A stretch of DNA of 64,000 nucleotides, taken from a virus (taxonomy: Duplodnaviria; Caudoviricetes). The translations under genes and the position numbers were made by a program. The stretch covers positions 1 to 64,000 of IMG/VR virus record IMGVR_UViG_3300007770_001239; one strand, given 5' to 3'. Under the pieces are notes generated by a model. That model did not search any database. It saw nothing but the letters and a program-made list of their open reading frames with translations, and was not told the DNA's origin. This document shows positions 5,965 through 28,437 of this stretch, piece by piece; position 1 is the first letter of the stretch; each line of letters opens with the position of its first letter.

Positions 5965-6196
5965 TAGGGCTCATGAAAATGCTTTAGCATTTATGGTGAA
6001 TATGCAGACATGCGCAACCTTTGAGTCGCTAGCTCAACGAATCGAATTATTAGAAACAGTTATGTCACTACCTGTTATGTCATCATCTGCTGCAAAAATT
6101 GTGACAATGACAAAAATTGGCTATGAGCAAGAGCTACAAGAAATAGACACTGCAATCAAAGTCTATTGTTCTTTACCCGGGGTTCCCGAAGCTTAG
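5906..6196 (+). CDS. Hypothetical protein
   Basis: ORF; true start may be downstream. Confidence 0.5.
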   Translation: MQTLTGSVGSEEDQKKSPFDRAHENALAFMVNMQTCATFESLAQRIELLETVMSLPVMSSSAAKIVTMTKIGYEQELQEIDTAIKVYCSLPGVPEA

Positions 6197-7098: not shown

Positions 7099-7119
7099 TT
7101 TGACGGTGCCTCTAAAAAT

Positions 7120-7126
7120 TAAATAT
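7120..7126 (-). promoter_or_regulatory. Candidate phage late-promoter motif ATATTTA
   Basis: Minus strand, 21 nt before GTG 7098. Confidence 0.45.
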
Positions 7127-7221
7127 AGAAAAAAAACGTTTAGTTGGTGTACTTTCAAGGAATGATGACTATCATTGTATTAAATAACCTCACCGGCTAT
7201 AGGTTTCCTATTGAGTAACGT

Positions 7222-7733: not shown

Positions 7734-8020
7734 ACGAAGATGGGCCTGGTAGCAACTTTCATACGATAGACCCCCACCCAATTAGTTTTTTCCACGATGA
7801 CCGTGTTGACGTGGAAATGTTTCCATCTGGATGGGGAGAGTTTGGGGTCCAGGTTACATGTGATGACTTGGAATATAACAGCGGCCTTCGCCGATTTTCA
7901 GATGAAGAACAAGGTGAGCTTTGGGCTAGAAATCAATACAGCAATTTAATTTCCAAACTTGATTCAGCAAACAATGTCGTAGAAGAAGTGATTAAAAGGC
8001 TTCTAGAGAACGCCGTTTGA
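7682..8020 (+). CDS. Hypothetical protein
   Basis: 112 aa ORF, 52 nt overlap with the previous ORF. Confidence 0.6.
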   Translation: MHGFDKKTDKSAVSKVLNEDGPGSNFHTIDPHPISFFHDDRVDVEMFPSGWGEFGVQVTCDDLEYNSGLRRFSDEEQGELWARNQYSNLISKLDSANNVVEEVIKRLLENAV

Positions 8021-8788
8021 TATTAAGAAATTTCTAAGTGCTTGCGTTTTACACCCAATCGCATATTCATCAAAGCTCACCGCCGCGGCGTTGATTATGG
8101 ATAATACTTCTCCATCTTCATTCATAACTGGAGAGCCACTAGAGCCAGGTGCTGCGGGTATTGTGAAAATATAGAGCGAAGAAACTTGTCCTGTGAAATA
8201 ACCATCGAAGACGGGGACAGCGACTGGTACAGCTAGTCCAAGTGGTGATGCCATGTTGTACACTTTTTCGTGCAGTGAAGGCTCACCTTCATAAATAGGT
8301 AATGCTGGTCCGAGGTACGTATCAGATATTAGAAGGCAAAGATCATTGATCATGTCAATAGAAAGTATTGTACCAATTCCCGGTTTGCCGAATCCTGTTT
8401 CCAGTTCAATATGATATTGTACGTTTAGATTCTGAATCATAGGAACCATGTCACTGCCACCTGCACATACGTGTCCAGCTGTTACCACTAAAGATTTTCC
8501 ATCTCGTTCCCCAACCACAACACCAGAGCCGGTTCCAGATATTTTGTTTGTCGGGCTTGGAACCGGAATGCAATCTTCATCTGATTGATTACAAATTTGT
8601 TGAAACGTTATCAGGTCTTGTGTTACCATAACAAAAGATTCAATCGGAAAATAGCTGTCAGCCTTTTCGATTTGAGAAACTGGAATCCAGCGAATGTTAG
8701 AAGTGATTGAAGCAAAATTTAATACGCTTACAATTGTGAGCGCGCAAAGCATCATTGTTATTATTAATTTGTAAGGCTTCTTTATCAT
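8003..8788 (-). CDS. Membrane-anchored trypsin-like (S1) serine protease
   Basis: N-terminal TM; SGTGSGVVV, TAGHVC (His), DLCLL (Asp), PGSSGSP (Ser). Confidence 0.9.
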   Translation of the reverse strand: MIKKPYKLIITMMLCALTIVSVLNFASITSNIRWIPVSQIEKADSYFPIESFVMVTQDLITFQQICNQSDEDCIPVPSPTNKISGTGSGVVVGERDGKSLVVTAGHVCAGGSDMVPMIQNLNVQYHIELETGFGKPGIGTILSIDMINDLCLLISDTYLGPALPIYEGEPSLHEKVYNMASPLGLAVPVAVPVFDGYFTGQVSSLYIFTIPAAPGSSGSPVMNEDGEVLSIINAAAVSFDEYAIGCKTQALRNFLISNGVL

Positions 8789-8838: not shown

Positions 8839-9633
8839 ATGACTACTTCAAACGTGATCACTCTATTCGACATGGACGGTACACTGACTCCGCCTAGAAA
8901 GACAATAGACAATAATGTGATAAGGGCCCTTAGTCGGCTTTCAAAAATAACCAGAATTGGAATCATTACCGGTTCTGACTTTGAATATATTCTAGAACAA
9001 TGTAATGCTATGTTTGATGTGGGTGGCGTTTCAATGAGTGATATTGATCTACTGCCATGTAACGGAACCAAATTAGCGAAATGGGAAAAGTCAAAGTGGA
9101 CCATGGTTCATGAAGTAGATATGATCGAGAAGATAGGCAAAAATACTTACAAGAATATTCTTATGAAAATATTCGAGTGGCAAGCAGAAATAACTCGATT
9201 CTATCCAGACCTCCCCTTTAGCGGAACATTCTTTCAGTACAGGGGCTCTCTTTTAAATTGGTGTCCGATTGGCAGGACAGCAGATACACAGCAGAGAGAC
9301 GAATGGAAAAAATGGGATGAGGGCTATTGCATCCGCTCCAATTATATGGACGAGTTACAAAAGTATATCGCTAAGGAAAAACTTCCCATCACCGTCGCAC
9401 TGGGTGGCTCAACAAGTTTTGATATTTACCCAGCTGGATGGAACAAAACTTACGGTCTTCAGCACTACGATGGATGGGATGTGTTATTCGTGGGAGATAA
9501 ATGCCAGCCCGGTGGTAATGACTGGCACCTTTATTCTGCATTATCAGATGCAGATAGAGCGTGGGAAACCGATGGACCAGAAACTACAATCAGCATAATC
9601 AATAGAATCATAGAAAAGCTTTCTAGCGCTTGA
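8839..9633 (+). CDS. Phosphomannomutase, eukaryotic PMM/Sec53-type HAD
   Basis: LFDMDGTLTPPR, GSDF, RGSLLNWCPIGR, GGSTSFDIYPAGWNKTYGL, FVGDKCQPGGND. Confidence 0.9.
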   Translation: MTTSNVITLFDMDGTLTPPRKTIDNNVIRALSRLSKITRIGIITGSDFEYILEQCNAMFDVGGVSMSDIDLLPCNGTKLAKWEKSKWTMVHEVDMIEKIGKNTYKNILMKIFEWQAEITRFYPDLPFSGTFFQYRGSLLNWCPIGRTADTQQRDEWKKWDEGYCIRSNYMDELQKYIAKEKLPITVALGGSTSFDIYPAGWNKTYGLQHYDGWDVLFVGDKCQPGGNDWHLYSALSDADRAWETDGPETTISIINRIIEKLSSA

Positions 9634-12567: not shown

Positions 12568-13728
12568 ATGTCAATATTCAAAAGACATAAGACGATAGCA
12601 GATCGATCGGCTAATGATCGATCGAGGCATCGCAAGAAAATTGAGAAAGCTATCAAAGAGGGGATCCATAATATCGTTGCAGAAGAGTCCATTATCGGAA
12701 AAGGTGGAAAGAAGAAATTTCGAATTCCTGTTAGGGGGATTAAAGAATATCGCTTTGTATATGGAGACAATGGGTCTAAAAGAGTGGGGTCAGCCCAAGG
12801 AAAAGATGTCCAGCGTGGACAAGTTATTGGTGAGAAAGAGCGCCGGCGTGATCAAGCTGGTGGAAAGCCAGGACAAGAAAAGGGCGAAGAATTTTATGAA
12901 GTAGAACTAACTCTAGAGCAACTGTCTGAATACCTCTTCAAGGATTTAGAGCTTCCAAATTTTGAAAAGAAAAGAAATGCAAAAGTTGTTTCGAAAAAAA
13001 TAAAGAGAAAAGGCTACAGAACAAAGGGTATCCGACCAAGGCTTGATAAGAAAAAGACAGTCATGCAGAAGATCAAGCGAAGAAAGAAGGCCGAGTACTC
13101 GGGCACTAGAGGAGAAGATGAAGACTTTTCATTTCATGACAGAGATCTACGATATCGTCATTATAAGGTTTCAAAAAAGCTGTCCTCAAATGCTGCGATT
13201 TTCTTTTTGATGGATATCTCTGGATCAATGACAAAAGAAAAGAAGTTTCTTGCAAGGAGTTTTTTCTTTTTGCTTTATCACTTTATTCGCTCTAAATATG
13301 ACAAGGTGGAACTAGTATTTATATCACATGATGTAGAAGCGTATGAAGTGACAGAAGAACAATTCTTCGGACGTGGTTCATCAGGTGGAACTCTAGTTTC
13401 TTCTGCTGTTAAAATGACAGATGACATTATTGATATTCGATATCATCCGTCTAACTGGAATACATATGTTTTTCAATGTTCTGATGGTGACAACTGGCCA
13501 GGTGACAATGATGCTGTACGAGGTTTGCTTTCTACGCTAATGCCGAAAGTACAATTCTTTGGGTACTGTGAAATATCTCCTAACAGTGAACGTCTAAAGT
13601 GGATAAATGACACATCGCTTGGGAAGCTTTACGAGACAATGACGAGTGATAAATTTAAATCTGTAGGGATATATTCAAAAAATGATATCTGGGTGGCGTT
13701 TAATAATTTTTTTAAGGGAGAATATTAG
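12568..13728 (+). CDS. yeaH: YeaH/YhbH (DUF444) vWA-type protein
   Basis: DRSRHRKKI, IPVRGIKEYRFVYG, FLMDISGSM, SSGGTLVSSA, YVFQCSDGDNW, GYCEI. Confidence 0.95.
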   Translation: MSIFKRHKTIADRSANDRSRHRKKIEKAIKEGIHNIVAEESIIGKGGKKKFRIPVRGIKEYRFVYGDNGSKRVGSAQGKDVQRGQVIGEKERRRDQAGGKPGQEKGEEFYEVELTLEQLSEYLFKDLELPNFEKKRNAKVVSKKIKRKGYRTKGIRPRLDKKKTVMQKIKRRKKAEYSGTRGEDEDFSFHDRDLRYRHYKVSKKLSSNAAIFFLMDISGSMTKEKKFLARSFFFLLYHFIRSKYDKVELVFISHDVEAYEVTEEQFFGRGSSGGTLVSSAVKMTDDIIDIRYHPSNWNTYVFQCSDGDNWPGDNDAVRGLLSTLMPKVQFFGYCEISPNSERLKWINDTSLGKLYETMTSDKFKSVGIYSKNDIWVAFNNFFKGEY

Positions 13729-15033
13729 ATGTCTTTATTAAAAGAATTAGAGAAGTGGGACGAGACCTTAGAGAAGATGGCTCTTGATCATGGCTTGGAT
13801 TGGTTTCCTATCCTGTATGAGACATGTGATTATTATGAAATGATTGGTACAATGGCATATCATGGAATGCCCTCTCATTACGGACATTGGAGCTACGGCA
13901 AAAGCTTTGAACGGACGCATGCCATGTATAATGCCGGCCTAGAAGGCTTACCTTATGAATTGATCATCAATAGTGATCCATCTTTAGCTTATTTGATGGA
14001 AGAAAATCCACTCTATCTTCAAATCTTAATAATGGCTCACTGTATCGGACATTCAGACTTTTTCAAGAATAACGCAACGTTCAAAAAAACCAGGCCAGAC
14101 CAAGTTATCTTAAGAATGCGCAATGCAAAAAGATACATCGATCAGCTCGTAGAAGATCCAAGCGTTGGTGTAGAGCGAGTTGAAGAAGTTTTGGATGCGG
14201 TTCATGCGTTATCTTTGCACGTGCCCAGAAGGCACAAGAAATATGTTTCTCAAAAAGAGCAACGCAAAGAGCTTATTCAAGAAATTAAGGGTGGATTTTT
14301 CAAAGATGAAAAAACATCTCCGAACCCCGACAGATATCCCATAAGTAGAGAAGAAAATCTTATCGCATTTATTGCAGAAATGGCGCAAGGATTAGAAGAG
14401 TGGGAAAGAGAATTAATGTTGATTGCTTTGGATGATGCTCAATATTTCATGCCACAGATTAGAACGAAGATAATGAACGAAGGATGGGCGTCATACTGGC
14501 ACTACAGATTGATGCATGAATTAGAATTAGATTCAGGCATGCACTTGCCATTCCTAAAAATGCATAATGAAGTTGTTCGTCCCCACCTTGGTTCGATCAA
14601 TCCTTATCATTTAGGGTTTCATATGTTTCAGAAAATTGAAGAGAGGTTTGGACTTGAGGAATGCTTTATCGCAAGAGAGTCATTAAATGATGAATCATTT
14701 TTAAGACAATACCTCACCGAAAAGGATTGCGAAGAATTGAACCTATTTAGTTTCTCTTTACACAAGAATGAGTACATGATAGATGATGTGTCAGATACAC
14801 AAGGATGGAAAAACGTGAAAGAAGACCTAATCAAACAAGTTGGCGGGAATAATATACCCGTAATAACAGTGGCTGGTATTGAAGAAGGAAATATTTTGTG
14901 TCTACAGCATGAACACGATGGTAGGGATTTAGACTTAGATTACGGAGATGCAGTGGTCCGACATATTACTCGTTTGTGGGGTGATATTGTTAAATTGGAT
15001 ACGATAATCGAAGATGAACCCTTCGAGATTTAG
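13729..15033 (+). CDS. spoVR: SpoVR/YcgB family protein
   Basis: GMPSHYGHWSYGK, YELIINSDP, MAHCIGHSDFFKNN, KIMNEGWASYWH, NPYHLG. Confidence 0.95.
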   Translation: MSLLKELEKWDETLEKMALDHGLDWFPILYETCDYYEMIGTMAYHGMPSHYGHWSYGKSFERTHAMYNAGLEGLPYELIINSDPSLAYLMEENPLYLQILIMAHCIGHSDFFKNNATFKKTRPDQVILRMRNAKRYIDQLVEDPSVGVERVEEVLDAVHALSLHVPRRHKKYVSQKEQRKELIQEIKGGFFKDEKTSPNPDRYPISREENLIAFIAEMAQGLEEWERELMLIALDDAQYFMPQIRTKIMNEGWASYWHYRLMHELELDSGMHLPFLKMHNEVVRPHLGSINPYHLGFHMFQKIEERFGLEECFIARESLNDESFLRQYLTEKDCEELNLFSFSLHKNEYMIDDVSDTQGWKNVKEDLIKQVGGNNIPVITVAGIEEGNILCLQHEHDGRDLDLDYGDAVVRHITRLWGDIVKLDTIIEDEPFEI

Positions 15034-15047
15034 TTCGGGAGAAGCTT

Positions 15048-16976
15048 ATGTCAAAAAACAAATATCTAGATATTATTAAGGCTCAACGGGCTTCTAATAA
15101 GAAAGAAAAATTTAGAGGGACTTTTCTCGAGTACCTTTCTCTTATAGAGAAGGATCCCTCCATAACTGATCATGCACATAAAAGGCTTTATGATACAATC
15201 ACTGAGCACGGTGTGAGTAGGCTTGATGACACTGACCCTAGAAAACACAAGCTATTTGATGGAGAGAACATAAAGACTTATGAGTATTTTCAAAGTCAAT
15301 TTTATGGGATGGAAAAAGTAATAGCTAAAATAATGAGGTATCTTCGCTCGGCTGGACTTAAGGGTGAAGAGAGTCGTCAGGTATTACTTTTGATGGGCCC
15401 GGTTGGCGCTGGAAAATCTGCTCTCACAGAGCATATAAAGAGCTGTCTGGATGGCCATACATACTACCACTTAGAAAGTGATCCTCAGTGCGGTGAGCCG
15501 CTTCAATTAATTCCGCGGTCTTTGAGACCAAAGATGAAAGAGATGTTAGGCGTGCATATTGAAGGAGACATATCTCCCGTTGCAAGACACCTCTTGTTTG
15601 AAGAATACGGTGGGGAATATGAAAAGTTTATTGTAAAAGAAACTACATTTTCCCAGCGAGCAAGAAGGGGTGTTGCATCAGTACCACCAATGGATGCAAA
15701 TAGCCAAGACGTTTCTGTCCTTATCGGTTCAGAAGACATTTCCAAGTTAGACAAATATTCTGAAGATGATCCCAGAGCGCTTAGTCTTAATGGAGCATTC
15801 AACGTGGGTAATCGTGGGATTGTAGAGCTTGTGGAGGTCTTTAAGAATGAAATTGAGTTTCTCCACACAATCATCACCGCGACACAGGAGAAGAGAGTTC
15901 CGTCCCCCGGAAAGCATGATATGATCCATTTCGATGGTGTGATCTTAGCGCACTGTAATGAGGCGGAATGGAATCGGTTCCAGAGTGAGCACACTAACGA
16001 AGCTATTTTAGATAGGATTGTTAAGATCGATGTACCGTATGTTCTGGAACTAGAACAGGAAATTCGGATTTACGAAAAAATTCTTGGTCAAGCCAATTTT
16101 GATATTCATATCGCTCCCCATACTCTACGCGTTGCGTCGATGTTTTCGATTCTCAGTCGATTGCATGAAAGTCAAAAATGTGATCTCTTAACAAAGCTAA
16201 AAATCTATAATGGCGAAGAAGTTGTAGAAAAGGGTCGAGTCAAGAAAATAGACATTACTGACTTGAAAGACGAATCAGACAGAGAGGGAATGACTGGAAT
16301 TTCTACAAGATTCATAATGAAAGCAATTGATAACGCATTAAGTGATTCTGATCGTGATTTTATCACCCCTGTTTCCATGCTAGACTCCTTGATGAAGCAA
16401 GTGAAAGAACAACTGATAAACAAAGATTTCGCAGAGCGTTGTCTTGAATTGATTCGAAATACGGTCAGGAATGAATATCTTAGATTGCTTGAAAATGAAA
16501 TCGCAAAAGCATTTATTACTGCGTATGAAGAACAAGCACAATCCATTTTTGAAAACTATCTTGATAATGCCGAAGCCTTTACAACAAAGTGTAAACTAAA
16601 AGATCGAGTAACAAAAGAAGATATGCATCCTGATGAAGACTTTATGAGATCTATCGAAGGTGCTATTGGAGTGAGCTCATCGGGCAAAGAGGGGTTCCGA
16701 GCAGATGTGACTGCTTACATGTTCGCTAAAATGAGAAGGGGCGAAGTTGTTGATTATACATCTTATGAGCCGCTTAAGGAAGCGATCGAAACATACCTAA
16801 TCAGCTCAGTAAAAGATCTGGCTAGAATCGTTACAAAGTCTAAGACTAGAGATGATGAACAGAAGCATAAATACTCAAGCATGGTGCAAACCTTGATAGA
16901 CGAATATGGTTACACAGCTGAATCAGCAGAAGAAGTCTTGGTGTACGCTAGTAACAATCTCTGGAGAGATAGCTGA
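15048..16976 (+). CDS. prkA: PrkA/YeaG AAA+ serine protein kinase
   Basis: GEESRQVLLLMGPVGAGKS, GAFNVGNRGIVELVEVFK, HCNEAEW, EAILDRIVKIDVPY, GISTRF, VYASNNLWRDS. Confidence 0.95.
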   Translation: MSKNKYLDIIKAQRASNKKEKFRGTFLEYLSLIEKDPSITDHAHKRLYDTITEHGVSRLDDTDPRKHKLFDGENIKTYEYFQSQFYGMEKVIAKIMRYLRSAGLKGEESRQVLLLMGPVGAGKSALTEHIKSCLDGHTYYHLESDPQCGEPLQLIPRSLRPKMKEMLGVHIEGDISPVARHLLFEEYGGEYEKFIVKETTFSQRARRGVASVPPMDANSQDVSVLIGSEDISKLDKYSEDDPRALSLNGAFNVGNRGIVELVEVFKNEIEFLHTIITATQEKRVPSPGKHDMIHFDGVILAHCNEAEWNRFQSEHTNEAILDRIVKIDVPYVLELEQEIRIYEKILGQANFDIHIAPHTLRVASMFSILSRLHESQKCDLLTKLKIYNGEEVVEKGRVKKIDITDLKDESDREGMTGISTRFIMKAIDNALSDSDRDFITPVSMLDSLMKQVKEQLINKDFAERCLELIRNTVRNEYLRLLENEIAKAFITAYEEQAQSIFENYLDNAEAFTTKCKLKDRVTKEDMHPDEDFMRSIEGAIGVSSSGKEGFRADVTAYMFAKMRRGEVVDYTSYEPLKEAIETYLISSVKDLARIVTKSKTRDDEQKHKYSSMVQTLIDEYGYTAESAEEVLVYASNNLWRDS

Positions 16977-16977
16977 T

Positions 16978-17424
16978 GTGTTTAGATTGCCCCCAGATCA
17001 AAAATCTTATTTCTATAAAAACATTGAAATAAGAGAATCTTCTGTGCATGGCTTGGGTGTTTTTGCGACACAAGACATTCCAATACACACATGCTTTGAA
17101 ATTTCACCCGTTGTTATTTTTGACAGAAGCCTTATGCAGGACTGGCTAGATATGTACGATGAGCGGCATATTCTAAACGAGTACTTGTTCCAATCGTACG
17201 ACAAACAGCATGCAGTCGTGCTTGGTTTTGGAAGCATCTATAACCATTCAGCGTTCCCAAATGCATTTTACAGATGGCGAGAATGTGAAAAATTTCCAGC
17301 AATGGAATTTTGGTCTAAAAGAGCGATCGTAAAAAACGAAGAAATATTCGTGAAATATACACATTATTCTGATACATTACAATTCATGGATGAGAAAGAA
17401 TCCAAGTATCTTGGGCTTGAATAA
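16978..17424 (+). CDS. SET-domain lysine methyltransferase
   Basis: SSVHGLGVFATQDI, GFGSIYNHS..PNA, EEIFVKY; GTG start just after the prkA stop. Confidence 0.9.
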   Translation: MFRLPPDQKSYFYKNIEIRESSVHGLGVFATQDIPIHTCFEISPVVIFDRSLMQDWLDMYDERHILNEYLFQSYDKQHAVVLGFGSIYNHSAFPNAFYRWRECEKFPAMEFWSKRAIVKNEEIFVKYTHYSDTLQFMDEKESKYLGLE

Positions 17425-17435
17425 AGGGAGTTAAG

Positions 17436-17705
17436 ATGAACATACGTTTTGGTATGTCAGAGATGATGGTTGTTTTTGCAACTGCCCTATTGTGGCATAA
17501 CGTTGTCGGGGCTTGTTGCATTTTTGCGCTAGCAGTATTTTCGGCATTTTGTAGATGGGCAGTTGAATTTTCAGAAAAAACCAAAAAAGCAGAAGCGAAT
17601 CGTAAAGCAGTACAGACGCTAAATGAACAAGCAGGTGAATTGGGAGAAGCGCTTGGCGCACTTTTCTCTAGTGGTAATCAAAAGAAAAATACAAACTTGC
17701 ACTGA
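17436..17705 (+). CDS. Small membrane protein
   Basis: Hydrophobic N-terminal half, coiled C-terminus. Confidence 0.65.
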   Translation: MNIRFGMSEMMVVFATALLWHNVVGACCIFALAVFSAFCRWAVEFSEKTKKAEANRKAVQTLNEQAGELGEALGALFSSGNQKKNTNLH

Positions 17706-17716
17706 TCGGATGTCAT

Positions 17717-19039
17717 ATGTCTGTGCACAATCAGGTTATACGTGGAGATGAGCTCGATAAATGTAAGTCGATCTTAAAAAAAGATATCTCTCTATTGATC
17801 GAAGACATCAACAGTCTTTCATCTTCTGTTCTAATGACAGACCGGCTCCATACTATAGGATGGAGTGATTCTTTTCGTGGGCTTCTTGTTGGGTTGAATA
17901 ACTGCGAAACAGCATACAAGAACTTAATCTTGAATAGCGCGTATCATCTAAATGAAACATGCGCCCTGGCAATTCCTGTATATTTGCTTACACTTCAAAA
18001 GATTCTTTCCTCGTCAATCACAAATGAAAGAGCTCTTGCCTTAATAAAAGCACCAACTCGGCCTCGGCGAGTCAAGTCAATCGATATCATTAAGGAATGG
18101 GAACGAAGCATTCATGATGAAGTTACACTTTCCTATAAGAATGTTTTTATCGATGCTGTACGAACAGCTGGTTCACTTGGTTCCGTTGTCATTGAGCAGA
18201 CAACAGGAAATACAATCACTGAACTCGAGTCGGGCTGCCAATTTCAATGTAGTCTACATTCCTTTTTTCAAGAATCTTTTGATGACTACGTAGAATTAAG
18301 AGAGTGTATAGTTGTTGTGATCGATGGTGCCATCATCGATGTCAGCGAAATACATCATTTGTTAACATATGCTTACGAAAATAAGACGCCGGTGGTGGTC
18401 TTCGCGAGTAATTACTCAGACGATGTTGCAAACACTCTGATTGTGAATTGGGAAAAGGGGTTAGTGAAAGTCCTCCCATTCATCATGGATAAAAGTCTAG
18501 ATAATGTTAACCAAGTAAAAGATTTGTGCACTATTGCTGGTATTACACCGGTGTCTAAAGAGTCAGGGATACTCATAAGCACTCTAGATTTTGATACAAT
18601 CCCGTCAAATACCGCAAAATATTCTGTCAAGAAACAAACTTGCTCAATTCAAACAAGCAAGAATAATTTTGATTCGATCAAGTATCTACGTCAAGATATT
18701 CAGAAAAAGCTGACTAAAGAAAAAGTAGATGATGTAAGAGATGTATTGAAAAAACGATTATCGCGATTATCAACACGGACAGTAAAAACTAAAATTCATT
18801 GCTCCAAAACAGAGGAGGGAATTCTTCAAGATAGAGCCGCATGTCTGGTCCAGCTTCTAGCATGTTCGGGGAGAGAAGGTATTATCGATATTCAGCCGAT
18901 TTATGATATGCTGAACTACACTCCTTCGAATTTTATGCCGACAATATTACCACATCAAATTACGCTTAATGCAATGCGAAGAGCTGTAGCTGATGCGAAA
19001 GCCATAAGTAATATTAGCGTCATTATCAAGCTGGATTAG
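17717..19039 (+). CDS. Degenerate GroEL/Cpn60-like protein lacking equatorial ATP motifs
   Basis: Segments match GroEL intermediate/apical domains (ELESGCQF, PVVVFASNYSDDVANTLIVN..GLVKV, DLCTIAG..VSKESG, KKRLSRL, EGII); no GDGTT or GPKG. Confidence 0.75.
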   Translation: MSVHNQVIRGDELDKCKSILKKDISLLIEDINSLSSSVLMTDRLHTIGWSDSFRGLLVGLNNCETAYKNLILNSAYHLNETCALAIPVYLLTLQKILSSSITNERALALIKAPTRPRRVKSIDIIKEWERSIHDEVTLSYKNVFIDAVRTAGSLGSVVIEQTTGNTITELESGCQFQCSLHSFFQESFDDYVELRECIVVVIDGAIIDVSEIHHLLTYAYENKTPVVVFASNYSDDVANTLIVNWEKGLVKVLPFIMDKSLDNVNQVKDLCTIAGITPVSKESGILISTLDFDTIPSNTAKYSVKKQTCSIQTSKNNFDSIKYLRQDIQKKLTKEKVDDVRDVLKKRLSRLSTRTVKTKIHCSKTEEGILQDRAACLVQLLACSGREGIIDIQPIYDMLNYTPSNFMPTILPHQITLNAMRRAVADAKAISNISVIIKLD

Positions 19040-19040
19040 A

Positions 19041-19517
19041 ATGGTAAAATGGAGCACATCGAAGATACAGTGGCATAATGCTGATTCTAAGCCGGCATCA
19101 TTTAATGATATTATTGAAAAAATAAATAGTAATAATGCATACCAAATTCATGTAGGGTGTGATTCTCACAAGCGAGGGGATACATATGTTTTCGCCGTTG
19201 TAATTGCTGGGTATGTTAACCGCAAGGGTGGCACTTTTTATTTCCACAGAAAAAGAAGCAAGGATTGCGCTTTAGATTCTATGAAATTTCGTCTTATGAA
19301 AGAAGCAGAATTAGCAATAGAAGCTGCACGATCTTTAAGAGAAGCATTTCCGATTAAGATTATAAATGTTCATCTAGATCTAAACCCTAACAAGAAATAT
19401 CCGTCATCTAAAATTTTAACATCTGCGATTTCTTGGGTAAACTCTTATGGGTTTACACCGATTGTGAAGCCAAATTCATGGGCTTCTTCATCTTTAGCTG
19501 ACGCATATGCTAAATAA
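19041..19517 (+). CDS. RNase H-like YkuK (DUF458) protein
   Basis: IHVGCDSH, RLMKEAE, NVHLDLNP, KPNSWASSSLAD. Confidence 0.85.
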   Translation: MVKWSTSKIQWHNADSKPASFNDIIEKINSNNAYQIHVGCDSHKRGDTYVFAVVIAGYVNRKGGTFYFHRKRSKDCALDSMKFRLMKEAELAIEAARSLREAFPIKIINVHLDLNPNKKYPSSKILTSAISWVNSYGFTPIVKPNSWASSSLADAYAK

Positions 19518-20270: not shown

Positions 20271-20521
20271 CAGAAGAGAAGAAAGAAGAAAAGCTAGAAC
20301 GAGAAGACACAGACTGGCTGCTTGACATTAAGAAATCGCGAGATATATGTCAGGAAATTTTAAGGTTTGGGGTTTCCCAAACACAAATTAGGAATATAAT
20401 CAATTTGCTTGCACTCGAGCTAGAAGATAGGGAGATGATGCTGGCAATCAACAGGGCTGTAAAACAAGAAGAGGATGAAGAACGCCCGAAGATTCTTCAT
20501 CCAGGAGAAAACGATGAGTGA
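20267..20521 (+). CDS. Hypothetical protein
   Basis: 84 aa, translationally coupled. Confidence 0.65.
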   Translation: MTEEKKEEKLEREDTDWLLDIKKSRDICQEILRFGVSQTQIRNIINLLALELEDREMMLAINRAVKQEEDEERPKILHPGENDE

Positions 20522-20708
20522 TTCAAACACAATTCTCGAAAATTGGGAGAGCCTGAAGGAGCTAGTAGCATCTTTAGAGTTAGACGTGCACAAGAACGCG
20601 CATGGAAACAAGTCTGCTGGTGTAAGAGCCAGACGCGGTTTGCGTAGACTAAAGGATTCATCCGCTAGCTTGGTTAAATTAACTTTAGAAGTTGAAAAGA
20701 GCAAGTAG
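20514..20708 (+). CDS. Hc1-family histone H1-like nucleoid protein
   Basis: LELDVHKNAHGNKSAGVRARRGLRRLK resembles the Hc1 core KxxKGNKAAAxRxR; GGAG RBS. Confidence 0.75.
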   Translation: MSDSNTILENWESLKELVASLELDVHKNAHGNKSAGVRARRGLRRLKDSSASLVKLTLEVEKSK

Positions 20709-20735
20709 CTCGCCCTATCATTCGAGCAAAATCTA

Positions 20736-20764
20736 AGAGAGAGCGTAAGCTCTCTCTTTTTTTT
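20736..20764 (+). terminator. Rho-independent terminator
   Basis: AGAGAGAGC-GTAA-GCTCTCTCT 9 bp stem followed by a T-run, between convergent genes. Confidence 0.9.
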
Positions 20765-20778
20765 ACGCGAAGCTATAC

Positions 20779-21099
20779 TTAATTGTGTGATTGATCGGAC
20801 AATATCTTCGGGGAAGATGATTTCAAGAATTGCTTTGCTAGTTTCTCTATCTGACATATTCGCATGCGAGTTACTTTGAATATGTCCCCCACTTCTTGTA
20901 GCGTCATTGGACCATCCCTAGATGCAAGAATAACGCAATTGTGGTGCTTCTTAGATTCCATCTCTTGCCAATATCGACAATCTTTTTTCTGGCAATCTAC
21001 GCCAAGATCAGAGTGTGCTTTAAAGCAGGTTAGTCCCTCTATAGCGTCGTCAGCCCTGGCTGCGCGCTTTGTATTCTTCTTTATTTTACCTTTATTCAT
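20779..21099 (-). CDS. Stand-alone sigma70 region-4 HTH protein with Cys-rich N-terminus
   Basis: MTLQEVGDIFKVTRMRICQIEK; C..CQKKDCRYW..HHNC. Confidence 0.85.
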   Translation of the reverse strand: MNKGKIKKNTKRAARADDAIEGLTCFKAHSDLGVDCQKKDCRYWQEMESKKHHNCVILASRDGPMTLQEVGDIFKVTRMRICQIEKLAKQFLKSSSPKILSDQSHN

Positions 21100-21176: not shown

Positions 21177-22490
21177 TTGGAAAGCAAAAGAAAACGATTT
21201 ATTCTTGACACGAGCGTTCTTCTGTATGATAAATCATCGATACATTCGTTTCCTGGAAATGATGTAATCTTGCCCCTTCAGGTCATAGATGAACTAGACC
21301 GCTTTAAGGAAAAACCCGGTATCGTGGGTGATGCGGCAAGATATGTAAATCGATTTTTAGATGAGCTTCGAGATATGGGTCGACTGGATGAGGGTGTTGA
21401 GGTTGATTCTTCACTGGCCGAAAGCCAAACAGTCAAAGTTACTATTGACGAAGATTTATCAAAGCTGCCCCGAGGGCTTGCGAAGGAAAGGGGTGACAAC
21501 AGGATCCTGGCGACGTGTATGTCTGAGAAGGCGAAAACGAAGTCTGGGCCCATCGTCGTCGTAACTAAGGACATTAACCTTAGGGTGAAGTGCGATGCAC
21601 TAGGGATAAAAGCAGAGGATTACTATAAGGATCATCTCGAGCGGGGGAACACGGAATATACTGGGCATCGAGAGCTGATGATTCAAAAAAATAAAATCGA
21701 TTCTTTTTATAGCGACGGTGTTCTAGCTTTAGAGAATGAAGACCTATCTCCTAATGAATGTGTTGTTATGGTATCATCAGAAAGATCATCTTCTGCGCTT
21801 GGCATGTATCGGGCTGGTGCCGTGTATCCATTGACACAAAGGCCGGGACAGCTTATGAGCAATTTTGAGTCTAAGAATAAAGAGCAAGCTTTTGCAGTGG
21901 AAGCCTTATTGAGAGATGAGATACAACTGGTGACCCTTACCGGTTTGGCTGGGTCTGGAAAGACATATGTCGCATTAATGGCTGGCTTGGATGGTGTGCA
22001 ACAGGGGAAGTATAAGAGGATAGTGGTTTCCAGGTCCATACAGCCTGTTGGAAGGGACCTTGGGTATTTACCTGGGGATATGGATGACAAGATGCAACCG
22101 TGGCTTGCACCGATCACAGACAACTTCAGAACAATGCTTAGTGACAAGAACTTTACGTACTTCGAAATGATGAAAGATCGTGGAGAATTAGAGGTCGCAC
22201 CGCTGGCGTATATTCGCGGTAGAACGTTTAACGATTCGTACGTGATTGTTGACGAAGCACAAAATGCGACAGTGCATGAATTAAAGACAATCATTACCAG
22301 AATTGGTAAGGGTTCGAAAATTGTGCTGTTAGGAGATACGGATCAAATAGATACTCCGTACATTAATAAATTAAGTAATGGACTGTCAATTGTCGTTCAT
22401 AAATTTAGGGACAAAAATTCAGCCGCGCACGTGCAATTAGTAAAAGGCCAAAGATCGGACATAGCTTCTCTTGCTTCTTTGATTCTTTAA
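21177..22490 (+). CDS. phoH: PIN-PhoH fusion (PhoH2/YlaK-like)
   Basis: ILDTSVLL PIN motif, DNRILA, LVTLTGLAGSGKT, GYLPGD, YIRGRTF, DEAQN, LGDTDQID; AAGGAG RBS. Confidence 0.95.
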   Translation: MESKRKRFILDTSVLLYDKSSIHSFPGNDVILPLQVIDELDRFKEKPGIVGDAARYVNRFLDELRDMGRLDEGVEVDSSLAESQTVKVTIDEDLSKLPRGLAKERGDNRILATCMSEKAKTKSGPIVVVTKDINLRVKCDALGIKAEDYYKDHLERGNTEYTGHRELMIQKNKIDSFYSDGVLALENEDLSPNECVVMVSSERSSSALGMYRAGAVYPLTQRPGQLMSNFESKNKEQAFAVEALLRDEIQLVTLTGLAGSGKTYVALMAGLDGVQQGKYKRIVVSRSIQPVGRDLGYLPGDMDDKMQPWLAPITDNFRTMLSDKNFTYFEMMKDRGELEVAPLAYIRGRTFNDSYVIVDEAQNATVHELKTIITRIGKGSKIVLLGDTDQIDTPYINKLSNGLSIVVHKFRDKNSAAHVQLVKGQRSDIASLASLIL

Positions 22491-23190: not shown

Positions 23191-26100
23191 ATGGCAAGAG
23201 ACTTTAGAGCAGACCAAATACGCGTAAATAAGATAATCGCTTCTGGGTCGAGTTGGCCTTTGGCAACTGGGCGAGCGGTGGATACGAATGGTAACCCCAC
23301 TCCAGCTGAGCAGTACCACCCCAACCTGGGATTGCTGTTCTACTCATCTAGCGCCGCGGCAGATTACTCAGGCGTGATTGAGGGATCAACGGACTTGATG
23401 AACCAATTTGGTAATGAGCCGTGGCTCGTTTTTTCTGGTTCTGCAAATAACACTGCCCTGACTCCCGTGGGGGATGGTAGCGCGGTTCTCTTTCTTGGAG
23501 ATGTCATTATCAGTGGTACGCTGTTTGGAAAGCGACAGCTAATCCAGATTGATAGCGATGTCCCGAATGATTTTTATGTTCAAGGGAATACGCACCTTTC
23601 CGGTAACTTTTTTGCTGGTCCTACCTCATATGATAATGGCGGAACGCACACCCAGAATATGACAGTCTATCCGAACCAAAGGGGTGATAGAGGAGTCAAG
23701 ATTAACTCTGATATGATCGTCTATACAAGGGGTAGCTCGGCAATGCCCCCTCGGATATCTTTCAGAACACTCACATGGGAAGACCGACTTACTCCAGCAA
23801 CCGGGAATGAACATCCTGATGTCTTCTTTCACGTTTCAGGAACCGTTGGTGGTAGACTCGGAAACCAGCGCGGTATTGCTTTATTCGGTGGTGATCTTCA
23901 TGTTTCCGGAAACTTCAGCGTTGATGGGTCAAATGACCTTGTTAAATTCCAAGAGGACATGATCCTCAATAATACCAGAAGTATGCCGCCGAACTTCGGT
24001 CATGATTATACCAACCCCGCGAACCTTCCGCCTCCTCTTTCTCGTATTAAAAAGCTGGATCGCTGGACTGTTGGTCAGTTTGCACCCAACGCTTCTAGCT
24101 GGTGGTCGGTCCTTCATAACTCATCTTCCACCGCGGTGGGTGGCCATGGTGGGTGGAAGCTTAAGGTCAAAGGGGGCGCGCCCTGGAATGGGAATGAATT
24201 TACGGTTTCCGGGTCGGGTGATGTTGGAATAGACCCAGGTAAAACTTTCTGGTTTGACTCTCGCGGTGCAACGAAAACGGGTATTAAGCATACATGGGCA
24301 GTTGGTTCGAACAAGCTGCAGATCTCCGGCAATATCCCTACGTCGTATGAATTCAATCATGGGGTTGTGACAGGATCAGGCGGGTTCCATCTGCCACAAG
24401 GAACATCAGCTGAAGGTAGATTTGGTCAATCAATGGGAATTATGTTCCGCGGAGAGGGCTCAGGACTAGCAGGAAACGAAGCAGATATAGGAATATACTA
24501 CAACGGAAGTGTCCTTACAAACCCAATCTTAGGCGGGACTACAAATACACTAGTCTTTACAGGAACAAATGCCGCCAGCGATGGGTGGATGGGAGTTGGT
24601 GGTAAATTACAATTAATTGCGCATGGTGGTCTTGGAAAATTCCAGGCTAGTACAAATATGTTTCTTGGGACCGATTCAGGAGATATTAATATCAACCCTG
24701 GCGGTGGGAATGTAGTATTCAAAGATGCAACTGGTGCTGCCGTCGTTGATATAGACACAAGCAATGAACATCTACGACTACCTTCGACAGCAGATCCGGA
24801 TGACTATTTCCAAATAGCGGTAGGTGCTGCAGGAACAACCACCATCAAGACTTTTGATGATGCTGCAACAGGTGCGCATCTTACAGTAAATATTGACGGT
24901 AATATTGCAATGAACGCCGCTGACGCATCAACGATCGGTCTCGGTAACAGCAACGCAGATACTGGAAAGATAACAATTGGTGGGTCTGTTGCGAATAGGT
25001 CAGAAATCGAGCTTAACGCGACGAACATTGATGTTAACGCCGGGTCGGGAGGAATCAATCTCGATGCAGCTGGACAATCTCATCTTACCACAACAGCAGG
25101 GACACTAACACTTGACGGTGCTGGTGGAGTGAACATTGTAGGTAACTCATCTGAAGTTGATATAACAACTACCGGTGGCGTTGATATTAATTCGGCGGCT
25201 TTTGATGTTGACGCTTCAGGCGCAATAGCTCTTGATTCTGATTCGACATTTAATATCGGGGCTACGAACTTTGTCGTTACAGCTGACGGTGGCGCCGGTG
25301 ATGGCGCAATTAGTCTACAGACTACCGACACTACGAATGGTGTTAAAATATGTACCGTCGGCGGCGCTAGCGCAGTGCCGATCCAAATTGGTGGTGCCAC
25401 TTCTACGGTCACGATTGGTAACGATTTAAGTGTCGGAACGAATGCTCATTCTGGAAGTGTGGATGTTTGGGGTGATCTCACTGTCCATGGCAGCTTTATT
25501 AAGGGTCATATTATCAGTGCTTCTGTCGGTGACCCATTACTGCTTCTTAACTCTGGTGCGCTTAGTAGTAATAGTGGCGGAGGTATTGCAATCGCATCTG
25601 GTTCCAACCAGACCAACATCGCTATGGTGTTCGGTAGGGATACCTCATTCGTAAATACTTTCTTGGTCGGTACTCTTGACGTTGGTGACGGTGATTCCCA
25701 ATCAGAAACTAAGGTCGATCTTTCCGGGGCTACACCAATTCCCATTAGAACAACTGGTGTCCGGTTCCCGGCTGGAATGGCGCTAACTTCATCTCAGGTA
25801 ACAGCAGGCCCATATCATCTATCGATGTCTAATCCGAGTAATAAGGGTGGCATTAGAATAAGAGCAGGAAACCCAGTAGTAGGAGTAAATCAAGGACCGG
25901 TTCAATTAAGCGGTTCGATGTTCAGTATTCAGCCTGATAGAAAAGTCTATTTATTAGAATCAGATCCAGGAACGCATACAGGCGCTTGGTTAAAAGGTAA
26001 TTCAAGCTCCGGACTGATTACAGTAAGCGCTCCTGATGGTGTTACAATCCAAGGAGAGAAACCAGAATTACGTCTTGCTGACACTTATAAAATGCTCACA

Positions 26101-28437
26101 TGCTTTGGTGGTGGAGCGGGTACAGCAAATCTTCAACTTCAAAACGCCGGCGGAGATCTTCATCTAAGCTCTAGCGCGCCAGGAAATGCATGGACCCAGA
26201 CAGTAATATCATCTTCGCATGATATAAACATTAAGGCTGGACTCGGTAGTTTGCTTGGTGTAAATACCGGTGGTACATTCAAAGTAACTGGTTCAACATA
26301 CTCATTCCAGATGGCTGCTGGTCAGAAGATGTATCTGGACGAGGGAACAGACGTCAGTCTTCAGCTTGACAGCAATCTATTAAAGATCAATCTTGGTGGC
26401 GCTTATACCGGACTAAGATTAGACGATGCATCGCATATCTATTTTGATGGGTCTGCAAAGTACGTGCATGATTCCGGTCAAGTGTCAGATGGCGCACTAA
26501 CGTATCAAGGAACTGACATCACTGTTAATGCTTCAGCTGATGGTATCATTAACGCTGGGGGCGATCACCTCCAGCTTCGTAATAGAACATACGGAAAGGC
26601 TGTTGATTTACATGCAGGCTCAGCTTGGGTGTGGAGCGCTGCCGGTCAAAATAACAGATCAGGCGCGATATTAGTCGCATCATCATCTGCAACGGGTTTA
26701 CCAGATAGAGGGTACCTCTCATTAGGTTCTCAGCGAGGTGAGTTAACGAACGAAGTATTCTACAACGGTAGACATACAGACGTTGCAATCTGGGTTTCAG
26801 GAACGATGGGTGGACGAGGAAATGCATTCCCATCCGTCACGGCTTTCGGCGGTGACGTCGTTATGTCAGGAAGCCTCTCGCTTGCAGAATATATCTATCT
26901 CGAAGACTCTACTGCTACGAACATCAGGTTTAGAAGCAATAGGATTGATCTAAGCGCAAATTCCGTACAGTTGATATCGCTACAGCCAACTGCAGGAACA
27001 CCTTCAATAGCAATTAACGGCGACCAAGGTCAGTTTACTACTAGCATTGGCGGTCATGGTAGCCTTATTTTTGCAGCAGCTGGTCATGATAGCACAAATA
27101 GAGCCTTGTTCTTCTCCGATGGAACCGGGGAAGCAGCAGGACTTGACGTCAAATTCTACGTATCCGGTGCAGCCGGGTCCAGGAATAGTAGTACAAGAGG
27201 TACAACAGTGTTTGGCGGAGATGTTCACTGTTCGGGATCGTTAAGCACAGACACTTTGTCACTTGATAGCTTGACGCTTGATGCAACAAACTCGAAACTC
27301 GGATTCTATAACGCTAGCAATTTTTATATCCAAAAGTCTTCCGCAGACCTGGTGTTTAAGGATTCAAACCTGGGCACTCAGAAAACGCTAACGCAGTTGG
27401 CAAGTCAGGCTATGACCGAAAATCTGTTCAGCGTTACACAGACGGCTGTCGGAGTACCGAACTACGGAATGACAACAGGATCATTCTCATTCGATACCGG
27501 TGTAGGGGGTCCATCTGCGAACAATGCAAGGGCAACAAACGCCATCGGTGGAGATGTTTACTTCTTCGTCAGCGGGACGATGGGAGCAAAAGCTCTACAT
27601 CCAGCCGCTACTCCAAACAGAGGCGTGTCGGTGTTCGGTGGAGACATGCACGTATCGGGCGCGATCACGAGCGATAACACTGCATTCGGCGGGAGCTTAG
27701 ATGATGCTTATGACATGCCAAACGGTGGCGGGACACCCTCGACTGGTGCAGGAAGATCAATAACAGTTAACGGTCCACCCGTCGCATTAGCAAACGGCGC
27801 GTCTCTCGTAACATCAGACTTGTTGGTCGTTTCCGGGGGAATAGCGATGGGCCAAATGCGTATGGTGCCTATGGCCGACACTGATAGCTTTTATACAAAA
27901 GCAGGTTTGTTCCTTACATCAAGCGCAGGGGAACTATCGTTCGGCGCGGGGGGAGCACCTTCGGCGGCGAAAACGGCATTTACCATTAACTCAAATGCAA
28001 ATGTGATGATGCAACAAGCTTCAGGTGTTGGAAAGAAACTAGCATTCTCGCCGTCTGAAGCAGCGACGTATTTACAGTACACAAATGCAAACGGATCGAA
28101 TCCGGGCGGTCGTCAATTGACTATGGCTAACCAAACAACTGCCGGGATCATTCGACTCATTGCGGGTAACGACAATGGCGTAGGTAACCCAGGAACCGGA
28201 ACAGGATTCGATGGAGTCGTTCATTGTACAGGTAGCTTCCTCCCTGGTTTCGATCAAGAGTATAATCTTGGATCAGCAACAAAGCGCTGGGCGAATGTAT
28301 ACACCGGTGACCTCCATTTGAGAAATGATCGTGGAAACTGGACTATTTATGAGGAACCAGACATGCTGGTCGTGGTGAATAACCTCACCGGAAAGAAATA
28401 CAAAATGGGACTTACCCCCCTCGAGGATGAAGAATAA
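23191..28437 (+). CDS. Large tail fibre/virion protein (1748 aa)
   Basis: G/S/T/N-rich, internal repeats, C-terminal LGSATKRWANVYTGDLHLRNDRGNWTIYEE..NNLTGKKYKM typical of marine phage fibre ends. Confidence 0.85.
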   Translation: MARDFRADQIRVNKIIASGSSWPLATGRAVDTNGNPTPAEQYHPNLGLLFYSSSAAADYSGVIEGSTDLMNQFGNEPWLVFSGSANNTALTPVGDGSAVLFLGDVIISGTLFGKRQLIQIDSDVPNDFYVQGNTHLSGNFFAGPTSYDNGGTHTQNMTVYPNQRGDRGVKINSDMIVYTRGSSAMPPRISFRTLTWEDRLTPATGNEHPDVFFHVSGTVGGRLGNQRGIALFGGDLHVSGNFSVDGSNDLVKFQEDMILNNTRSMPPNFGHDYTNPANLPPPLSRIKKLDRWTVGQFAPNASSWWSVLHNSSSTAVGGHGGWKLKVKGGAPWNGNEFTVSGSGDVGIDPGKTFWFDSRGATKTGIKHTWAVGSNKLQISGNIPTSYEFNHGVVTGSGGFHLPQGTSAEGRFGQSMGIMFRGEGSGLAGNEADIGIYYNGSVLTNPILGGTTNTLVFTGTNAASDGWMGVGGKLQLIAHGGLGKFQASTNMFLGTDSGDININPGGGNVVFKDATGAAVVDIDTSNEHLRLPSTADPDDYFQIAVGAAGTTTIKTFDDAATGAHLTVNIDGNIAMNAADASTIGLGNSNADTGKITIGGSVANRSEIELNATNIDVNAGSGGINLDAAGQSHLTTTAGTLTLDGAGGVNIVGNSSEVDITTTGGVDINSAAFDVDASGAIALDSDSTFNIGATNFVVTADGGAGDGAISLQTTDTTNGVKICTVGGASAVPIQIGGATSTVTIGNDLSVGTNAHSGSVDVWGDLTVHGSFIKGHIISASVGDPLLLLNSGALSSNSGGGIAIASGSNQTNIAMVFGRDTSFVNTFLVGTLDVGDGDSQSETKVDLSGATPIPIRTTGVRFPAGMALTSSQVTAGPYHLSMSNPSNKGGIRIRAGNPVVGVNQGPVQLSGSMFSIQPDRKVYLLESDPGTHTGAWLKGNSSSGLITVSAPDGVTIQGEKPELRLADTYKMLTCFGGGAGTANLQLQNAGGDLHLSSSAPGNAWTQTVISSSHDINIKAGLGSLLGVNTGGTFKVTGSTYSFQMAAGQKMYLDEGTDVSLQLDSNLLKINLGGAYTGLRLDDASHIYFDGSAKYVHDSGQVSDGALTYQGTDITVNASADGIINAGGDHLQLRNRTYGKAVDLHAGSAWVWSAAGQNNRSGAILVASSSATGLPDRGYLSLGSQRGELTNEVFYNGRHTDVAIWVSGTMGGRGNAFPSVTAFGGDVVMSGSLSLAEYIYLEDSTATNIRFRSNRIDLSANSVQLISLQPTAGTPSIAINGDQGQFTTSIGGHGSLIFAAAGHDSTNRALFFSDGTGEAAGLDVKFYVSGAAGSRNSSTRGTTVFGGDVHCSGSLSTDTLSLDSLTLDATNSKLGFYNASNFYIQKSSADLVFKDSNLGTQKTLTQLASQAMTENLFSVTQTAVGVPNYGMTTGSFSFDTGVGGPSANNARATNAIGGDVYFFVSGTMGAKALHPAATPNRGVSVFGGDMHVSGAITSDNTAFGGSLDDAYDMPNGGGTPSTGAGRSITVNGPPVALANGASLVTSDLLVVSGGIAMGQMRMVPMADTDSFYTKAGLFLTSSAGELSFGAGGAPSAAKTAFTINSNANVMMQQASGVGKKLAFSPSEAATYLQYTNANGSNPGGRQLTMANQTTAGIIRLIAGNDNGVGNPGTGTGFDGVVHCTGSFLPGFDQEYNLGSATKRWANVYTGDLHLRNDRGNWTIYEEPDMLVVVNNLTGKKYKMGLTPLEDEE

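Follow-up and report, generated by a model that had tools for sequence, protein, structure and literature searches.

An ATP-site-less, equatorially reduced GroEL paralog family of jumbo phages

RESULTS AND DISCUSSION

A shrunken GroEL homolog

The window analyzed here comprises 64,000 nucleotides of a viral genome (Caudoviricetes; IMG/VR record IMGVR_UViG_3300007770_001239, positions 1 to 64,000), and the gene under study occupies positions 17717..19039 of its plus strand, stop codon included. It is an open reading frame (ORF) of 440 amino acids with an ATG start, exactly as claimed in a preliminary description made from the letters alone. We found that its product is a structurally complete, shrunken group I chaperonin subunit of an uncultured marine jumbo phage, a true GroEL/Cpn60 homolog with the three-domain fold (equatorial, intermediate, and apical). 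As far as the sequence can be read, every segment that contacts adenosine triphosphate (ATP) in GroEL has been substituted or deleted, so that the label of an ATPase-dead GroEL homolog, given to it in that description, is well supported. Group I chaperonins are the textbook ATP-driven folding machine, and to our knowledge natural chaperonins stripped of their ATP engine are rare. The gene belongs to a family, apparently undescribed, of ATP-site-less, equatorially reduced GroEL paralogs of jumbo phages.

Among PDB sequences, the significant phmmer matches were GroEL chains only (all of the best 60; best E value of 8.6e-11), the best of them aligning residues 144-370 of the short protein with GroEL 162-390. 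PHROG 5725, annotated as "chaperonin groEL," matched at 3.4e-11, and hhalign comparison of a family profile of 28 members with the GroEL profile gave a probability of 98.3% and an E value of 1.7e-14, with residues 141-391 equivalent to GroEL 158-413. Pfam PF00118 did not match the protein at an E value of <0.1, TIGR02348 scored 44.9 bits, far below its curated threshold (582.1), and the other GroEL models of NCBIfam reached 25 to 48 bits against cutoffs of 352 to 1041. The similarity blocks that had been quoted beforehand reappeared in the computed alignments, where residues 144-176 corresponded to GroEL 162-195, the helix I block PVVVFASNYSDDVANTLIVN..GLVKV was recovered on GroEL 246-273, KKRLSRLS aligned to QERLAKLS, and REGII aligned to EEGIL/EEGVV.

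An AlphaFold2 model, computed from the alignment of the family, had a mean predicted local distance difference test (pLDDT) score of 88.5, with no segment below 50. With this model as the query, Foldseek returned GroEL/Hsp60 chains throughout the matches listed (best E value of 5.5e-23), and VIA-align superposed 429 of the 440 residues on residues 3-526 of Thermus Cpn60 (Z score of 22.4), while isolated Cpn60 apical domains fitted residues 173-353 with a root mean square deviation (RMSD) of 2.2 Å over 177 residues (Z scores of 21 to 22). The structure search that had been proposed as a check thus recovers Cpn60 with both programs. It also amends the earlier view that the protein keeps the apical and intermediate domains: both are indeed kept, but this understates what is left, since a reduced and diverged equatorial domain remains as well. 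The model was much nearer to the GroES-bound "open" subunit (RMSD of 4.4 to 5.1 Å) than to apo GroEL (ca. 12 Å), a likeness that is a property of a prediction and deserves little weight.

Domain anatomy and loss of the ATP site

Residues were numbered against P0043, a canonical GroEL that matches the Escherichia coli GroEL numbering at all anchor motifs. When the family was merged with GroEL by MAFFT, the result was unreliable for residues 1-140, where residue-level claims were avoided, and the N and C termini stayed unaligned when hmmalign was run against the GroEL profile. All segments of the short gene are on the plus strand. The reduced N-terminal equatorial segment (residues 1-140; 17717..18136) was delimited from the AlphaFold2 model and its superposition on the GroEL N terminus, which begins with model residue 3 on chain residue 2 (VIA-align). 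In the model it consists of a strand (6-9), a helix (11-32), the stem-loop strands (37-46), and a second helix (49-59), followed by a single unbroken helix (65-97) that replaces helix C, the GDGTTT loop, and helix D of GroEL. Eight residues of this segment are invariant in the family (G48, D51, R54, S74, Y89, R118, S121, and D134), and Asp51 may be the equivalent of GroEL D52, in a part of the alignment that is unreliable.

The apical domain (residues 173-353, approximately GroEL 192-374; 18233..18775), which in GroEL binds clients and GroES, was delimited by VIA-align and conservation; it is the best-kept part of the protein and carries the family signatures EIHHLL (helix H) and DDVANTLxVNW (helix I). 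It is flanked by the first intermediate-domain segment (residues 141-172, approximately GroEL 158-191; 18137..18232), placed by the hhalign and phmmer alignments, and by the second (residues 354-391, approximately GroEL 375-413; 18776..18889), placed by hhalign and the merged alignment. Intermediate and apical domains together align to GroEL nearly gap-free. According to the last two alignments, R373 is GroEL R395 and G388 is the hinge glycine Gly410, and the position of the catalytic Asp398 is occupied by Cys376 and is variable in the family. The invariant Asp372 was considered as the counterpart of Asp398 and rejected, because D372/R373 fall on GroEL 394/395.

The C-terminal equatorial remnant (residues 392-440; 18890..19036) was delimited by the merged alignment and by a second hmmsearch domain, in which profile positions 411-439 match residues 512-540 of P0041 (E. 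coli 496-523). GroEL 414-494 has here been swapped for a 19-residue linker, and residues 412-440 represent the last helix and strand of GroEL (Pro496-Asp523), modeled as helix 413-432 and strand 435-438; Leu411-Pro412 corresponds to Asp495-Pro496, so that Asp495 is replaced by Leu411. In GroEL, the missing segment holds Gly414-416 and Asn479/Ala480 of the nucleotide pocket and also the inter-ring contacts E434, R452, E461, S463, and V464. Four of these (R452, E461, S463, and V464) are the residues mutated in the single-ring variant SR1. The back-to-back double heptameric ring of GroEL depends on these five contacts together with K105 and A109. With the deletion of GroEL 414-494, the inter-ring contact residues E434 and R452-V464 are lost from the short protein.

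A regular-expression scan of the 440 residues found no GDG[TS]T, G[PA]xG, GGG, GGM tail, or Walker A motif, and together with the alignments it bears out the absence of GPKG, GDGTT, and the GGM tail that had been pointed out beforehand. In total, about 80 internal residues are gone from the equatorial domain, as is the flexible tail, with the apical and intermediate domains intact, and the length deficit against GroEL (ca. 548 amino acids) is about 100 residues. Compared with GroEL, the short protein keeps the equivalents of F195, F204, L237, T261, V264, N265, D291, R368, R395, and G410 but is devoid of GPKG, GDGTTT, D398, GGG414-416, N479/A480, D495, and the GGM tail. The elements with which GroEL binds and hydrolyzes nucleotide are L31-G35, D52, D87-T91, D398, G414-G416, N479/A480, and D495. 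Having lost the ATP site, the protein presumably cannot cycle with ATP, and any role would have to rest on binding.

A remodeled groove between helices H and I

Mapping of the residues with which the GroEL groove contacts substrate and GroES showed a mixture of conservation and replacement. Phe204 (Phe184 in the short protein), Leu237 (Leu216), Val264 (Val243), and Asn265 (Asn244) are kept, Tyr203 has become Phe183, Pro235 has become His214, Leu259 has become Ala238, and Tyr199 is deleted. Leu234 is replaced by His213, with His, Asp, or Asn at this position in the superfamily, and Val263 is replaced by Ile242 at a variable position that is basic (Lys or Arg) in many relatives; the position after Asn265 is Trp245, and more than half of the distant members have an aromatic residue there. 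EIHHLL and DDVANTLxVNW are the most conserved stretches family-wide and were picked as the patterns for the locus search. We infer that the helix H/I face would still be the working surface of the short protein. The more polar character of the groove argues against a generic hydrophobic holdase, and the groove probably recognizes one or a few defined partners and not any exposed hydrophobic chain.

Selection and extent of the family

A word-indexed search retrieved 37 homologs (247 to 449 amino acids, a few of them partial; 32 to 84% identity) that had no Pfam annotation. Reading frames were intact in all 37, down to 32% identity, and an alignment of 28 homologs contained 35 invariant columns. 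The ratio of nonsynonymous to synonymous substitution rates (dN/dS, Nei-Gojobori) was 0.07 and 0.06 against the two closest relatives, at dS values (1.3 to 2.3) that are near saturation; by region, it was 0.04 to 0.05 for the apical domain, with 0.04 against the closest relative, and the same comparison gave 0.08 for the degenerate equatorial segment at the N terminus. Neutral decay of the homologs had been named beforehand as an outcome that would refute the ATPase-dead reading, and these estimates indicate strong purifying selection instead.

When 1.84 billion cluster representatives were searched exhaustively with HMMER, 1073 proteins matched at an E value of <1e-3 and 503 at <1e-10, and the superfamily comprises at least 500 clusters (50% identity). 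The 150 top-scoring representatives were all of 510 amino acids or fewer, and not one contained GDGTT or GPxG; among 170 relatives aligned to the GroEL profile, equivalents of D87/T89 were found in none and an Asp at the D398 site in two. Across 131 distant representatives, four near-invariant residues differ from GroEL, namely, Gly204 (130 of 131; Lys226 in GroEL), Val237 (126), Pro254 (125), and Asn265 (130), and five others are as in GroEL (Thr240, Asn244, Asp269, Gly284, and Arg347). The protein of the window has all nine signature residues (G204, V237, T240, N244, P254, N265, D269, G284, and R347). These shared derived apical residues argue for one constrained family with an apical-domain core.

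Ten distant members gave no relevant Pfam match (no chaperonin), their sole PHROG match being the generic GroEL PHROG, and neither Pfam nor PHROG has a model dedicated to the short family. Its neighbors in the ESM Atlas are "hypothetical protein" clusters, each with a share of 95 to 100% Viruses, and its structural neighbors in BFVD are full-length viral GroELs only. A tblastn search with the protein against 50,697 phage records gave no matches, and the same search with a distant member (P0064) yielded nothing beyond a match at 22% identity, in two records of uncultured megaphages. No relative in a cultured phage was detected. Among 185,579 GTDB species genomes, the family pattern, which is specific to the close family, matched a single 4.9-kb contig of a metagenome-assembled genome (MAG). 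This contig (L046; DQKQ01000100.1, 4,951 bp), binned into a Flavobacteriales MAG, carries a 76%-identical copy and represents either phage DNA binned in error or a faint clue to the host. Relatives came exclusively from IMG/VR viral contigs and from metagenomes of marine or aquatic origin, and the family context is viral (IMG/VR contigs of up to 281 kb, fragments estimated to be 3 to 30% complete); the tail fiber and baseplate genes of the window fit a jumbo-phage context. A literature search turned up no account of short phage GroELs that lack the ATP site, and the family is apparently undescribed and seemingly virus only.

Comparison with known chaperonins

The short protein shares its three-domain fold, over nearly the whole chain, with group I GroEL/Cpn60 (PF00118; PDB 1AON, 4V4O, and 5OPX). 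The chaperonins of Pseudomonas phages EL (gp146; 6TMT) and OBP (gp246) and of Bacillus phage AR9 (gp228) are likewise GroEL homologs of large or jumbo phages, often without GroES; the model superposed on EL gp146 (6tmt_A) with a Z score of 19.7, and its BFVD matches were the AR9 and metagenomic viral GroEL models. The EL, OBP, and AR9 proteins are full length (511 to 609 amino acids) and ATP dependent (PMC7185714, PMC9598537), whereas the short protein is a separate, ATP-site-less paralog that coexists with a GroEL of this type in two genomes (see below). A survey of viral GroELs in virioplankton retained only sequences covering GroEL 8-514 (PMC5649160).

Functional analogs can be seen in engineered minichaperones, in the eukaryotic BBS6 and BBS12, and in chlamydial GroEL2 and GroEL3. 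Engineered minichaperones (ca. GroEL 191-376; 1KID, 1FYA, and 3VZ6) are the closest structures to residues 173-353 (RMSD of 2.2 to 2.9 Å), and both represent an apical domain able to act only without ATP. However, minichaperones are monomeric fragments made artificially, in which the hydrophobic groove is native, while the short protein is natural, keeps the intermediate domain and an equatorial remnant, and has a remodeled, more polar groove. In eukaryotes, MKKS/BBS6 and BBS12 act alongside the canonical chaperonin CCT. They are three-domain chaperonin paralogs with a degenerate ATP hydrolysis motif and are thought not to fold proteins themselves (PMC5534436), but they are group II (CCT-related) proteins with insertions and not deletions, so that sequence kinship exists only at the level of the chaperonin superfamily. 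The chlamydial GroEL2 and GroEL3, which stand beside a canonical GroEL1, have diverged ATP-binding, ATP hydrolysis, and GroES-binding regions (PMC1892554), and their models (NF038370 and NF038369) matched the short protein weakly (37.8 bits against a cutoff of 600). Unlike the short protein, they are cellular and full length and have an intact equatorial domain.

Canonical GroEL in related genomes

Two long related genomes encode a motif-intact GroEL in addition to the short paralog. In the first one (G001; IMG/VR, 280,913 bp, 92% complete by CheckV), the short homolog is 31% identical and stands in the order PrkA, small protein, short GroEL, and DUF458, as in the window, and a GroEL of 525 amino acids (PF00118, 188 bits), with the motifs GPSG, GDGTTT, RVEDAL, AGGG, and IDP intact, is found about 160 kb away. 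In the second, an ENA contig of 289,811 bp, the short homolog (P0032, with the synteny of the window) and the canonical GroEL (P0260) are again about 160 kb apart. Between the two genomes, the canonical GroELs are 60% identical and the short paralogs are 28% identical. Cpn10 (PF00166) was not found in four related viral records, including the 92%-complete one, although a host GroES may be used. Canonical GroELs of the same clade were found on many contigs of 180 to 300 kb, while a search for PF00118 in 18 further related IMG/VR records gave none, an uninformative result, as these records are only 4 to 30% complete. The presence of canonical GroEL in two related genomes speaks for a link to an active chaperonin, and, judging from these relatives, the phage of the window probably carries one outside the window. 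A further assignment, of P0007 and P0243 to one shared 12,987-bp contig, was rejected, as the look-up gave a different contig.

At three loci (L038, 1426-3003; L047, 4001-5590; and L048, 1566-3152), the canonical gene belongs to a block consisting of a 5'-3' exonuclease, a small ORF, GroEL, a second small ORF, and a full sigma-70, without GroES. Peptide deformylase follows the block in two of the three (L047 and L048).

Gene neighborhood and other genes of the window

Upstream of the short gene, and on the same strand, Pfam and PHROG identified DUF444/YeaH (12568-13728), SpoVR (13729-15033), and the AAA+ protein PrkA (15048-16976), a trio that is complete and tightly packed in the phage (12568-16976, plus strand). 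The C terminus of PrkA (...NNLWRDS) is near-invariant even in very distant relatives, and its nearest homologs in cultured phages, about 30% identical, are those of Thermus phages and RsoM2USA, with others in uncultured megaphages. A SET-domain protein (16906-17424, plus strand; Pfam E value of 6.8e-12), the longest ORF of which shares 71 nucleotides with the end of PrkA, is a variable insert, present in L001-L003 and absent in L004, L005, L007, and L044. Between it and the short gene, at a distance of 11 nucleotides from the latter, alignment revealed a small membrane protein of 89 amino acids (17436..17705, plus strand) with two N-terminal hydrophobic helices, a conserved LNEQAGELGEAL motif, an invariant His as the very last C-terminal residue, and no Pfam family.

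Downstream, a PF04308 RNaseH_like (DUF458/YkuK-like) gene of 158 amino acids (19041..19517, plus strand; Pfam E value of 8.5e-26) starts 2 nucleotides past the stop codon of the short gene and is adjacent or overlapping in all close relatives. Three small ORFs follow, and then an Hc1 histone H1-like protein (20475-20708, plus strand). The 153-amino-acid ORF downstream in the window was compared with the 164-amino-acid neighbor of a distant member, and the two are unrelated. The first strong terminator-like hairpin (20735..20758, bidirectional, with a 10-bp stem and a T run) ends the codirectional run that contains the short gene, no strong terminator being found between yeaH and the Hc1 gene. 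Convergent to the Hc1 gene is a gene at 20779-21099, the single one on the minus strand in this region; in relatives, the corresponding genes match sigma-70 region 4. A PIN-PhoH gene (21177..22490, plus strand; Pfam) is a recurrent neighbor of the family, located 1.3 to 2.2 kb downstream of the short gene or, in distant members, divergently adjacent to it.

Down to 33% identity, relatives preserve the order YeaH-SpoVR-PrkA-(SET)-small protein-short GroEL-DUF458...Hc1-sigma region 4-PIN/PhoH. We examined 41 loci, found by patterns from one family and all belonging to related jumbo phages. In 31 of them PrkA directly precedes the short gene on the same strand, overlapping it or spaced from it only by the small membrane protein gene (in some, also by SET), and this linkage persists where family similarity has fallen to ca. 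65 to 110 bits. A homolog of the small membrane protein lies immediately 5' of the short gene in 21 of the 41, down to a family profile score of about 145 bits. In one subclade (L020, L021, L024, L025, L029, and L030) a different gene, of 175 amino acids, takes the upstream position, and two distant members are arranged head to head near PhoH without PrkA. The linkage with PrkA is therefore frequent but not obligatory.

Beyond PIN-PhoH, two abutting giant ORFs (1748 and 1395 amino acids; 23191-32624, plus strand) include only one, the second, with a weak match to a tail fiber PHROG, and a baseplate wedge homolog is located further downstream. About 20 back-to-back ORFs of 220 to 420 amino acids (32808-53550, plus strand), with glycosyltransferase matches at the sampled ends, may form a glycan synthesis island between the fiber and baseplate genes. 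The beginning of the window holds a poly(A) polymerase/CCA-adding head domain (392-1117), an HD domain (2936-3448), a weak vWA match (6193-7158, minus strand), a trypsin-like peptidase (8003-8788, minus strand), and an ORF (8839-9633) located where relatives have a eukaryote-type phosphomannomutase.

Possible functions of the short protein

The preliminary description had proposed an ATP-independent holdase or a subunit that co-assembles with GroEL rings and retunes or inhibits them for capsid folding; nothing observed here connects the protein with capsid folding. The most likely reading, which we put forward tentatively, is that the short protein serves as an ATP-independent, partner-specific holdase or assembly factor. 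Presumably unable to drive an ATP folding cycle, it would act as an ATP-independent binding module, and its polar H/I groove (His-His, Asn, and Trp or another aromatic residue) would grip one or a few specific partners. The retained terminal strands and stem-loop could still permit a single ring. During infection the protein would be a dedicated holdase or an assembly or hand-over factor, its client possibly being passed to a phage-encoded ATP-driven machine, either canonical GroEL or PrkA. There is a precedent in the isolated apical domain of GroEL (the minichaperone), which is active without ATP. Several observations weigh against this interpretation. The polar changes (Leu234 to His, Val263 to Lys or Arg in many members, and deletion of Tyr199) weaken the analogy with substrate binding by GroEL, tblastn with a related phage GroEL found no canonical GroEL in the 64-kb window, and PrkA was absent from five searched records (10 to 99 kb) of the subclade with the 175-amino-acid upstream gene. 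In addition, the neighborhood (PrkA, the small membrane protein, DUF458, and PhoH) may reflect the synteny of a lineage rather than function.

We rank second, as an unlikely explanation, that the short protein assists an ATP-competent chaperonin in a regulatory or structural role, by co-assembling into or capping the rings of the phage GroEL or of the host GroEL/GroES. Such a partner would change the client range or replace the missing co-chaperonin, amounting to a two-component viral chaperonin. The motif-intact GroEL beside the short paralog in both long genomes, with Cpn10 absent in G001, is in line with this, as are the terminal strands and stem-loop of the GroEL intra-ring sheet kept in the model, the resemblance of the model to the GroES-bound subunit, and the ATP-motif-degenerate BBS6 and BBS12 as a eukaryotic precedent (PMC5534436). 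Nevertheless, the two genes are about 160 kb apart in both genomes, and their unequal conservation (60 versus 28% identity) is contrary to what tight co-assembly would lead one to expect. A protein that has lost about 80 equatorial residues, including the ring-ring interface, would fit poorly in a GroEL ring, the deletion of the inter-ring segment arguing against simple insertion into GroEL-type double rings, and the GroES contact residue L234 is replaced by His. Ranked third, and more doubtful still, is an accessory of the PrkA-YeaH-SpoVR module, a passive adaptor that would hold or present substrates for PrkA and might be anchored by the small membrane protein. The position of PrkA directly upstream at three-quarters of the loci (31 of 41), even where family similarity is low, the co-conservation of the small membrane protein, and the lack of a strong terminator from yeaH to Hc1 would fit such a role; but the loci were collected with the patterns of one family from related jumbo phages, so that the order may be inherited synteny. 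PrkA is also replaced by another upstream gene in one subclade, with none in its five searched records, and is missing from the two distant members that adjoin PhoH, and we know of no GroEL-like partner in cellular PrkA/YeaG operons.

Two further explanations were considered. The cluster of invariant polar residues in the remnant equatorial domain (D51, R54, S74, Y89, R118, S121, and D134) might form a noncanonical pocket of a chaperonin that is still driven by nucleotides, but the P-loop, the Walker motif, and the Thr-rich phosphate loop are absent, the segments contacting adenine and ribose are deleted, and the catalytic Asp398 has given way to a variable residue, which makes this very improbable. 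That the gene is a functionless, decaying remnant of a phage GroEL could be suspected because every catalytic motif is gone, along with about 100 residues, and because no Pfam match exists. It is refuted as far as sequence can show, and we give it practically no credence: the 37 intact frames, the 35 invariant columns, the low dN/dS (0.06 to 0.07, and low in the degenerate equatorial part too), the confident and compact predicted fold, and the superfamily-specific invariant residues missing from GroEL all speak against decay. A more elaborate and rather doubtful scenario is a two-part viral chaperone, in which the short protein would form a ring that is always open and free of nucleotide and that the 89-amino-acid protein may anchor in the membrane. 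The ring would capture a specific phage client and then either provide the GroES-less phage GroEL with its missing lid or an adaptor or pass the client on to PrkA.

Implications

For want of a Pfam or PHROG model, thousands of metagenomic proteins are now labeled "hypothetical." Were the two-part scenario true, it would be a natural split of the binding and ATPase functions of a chaperonin between polypeptides. If the short protein is indeed an ATP-independent holdase, adaptor, or regulator, it would provide a view of proteostasis in giant phages, a natural minichaperone for protein engineering, and a testable case of a chaperonin turned pseudoenzyme.

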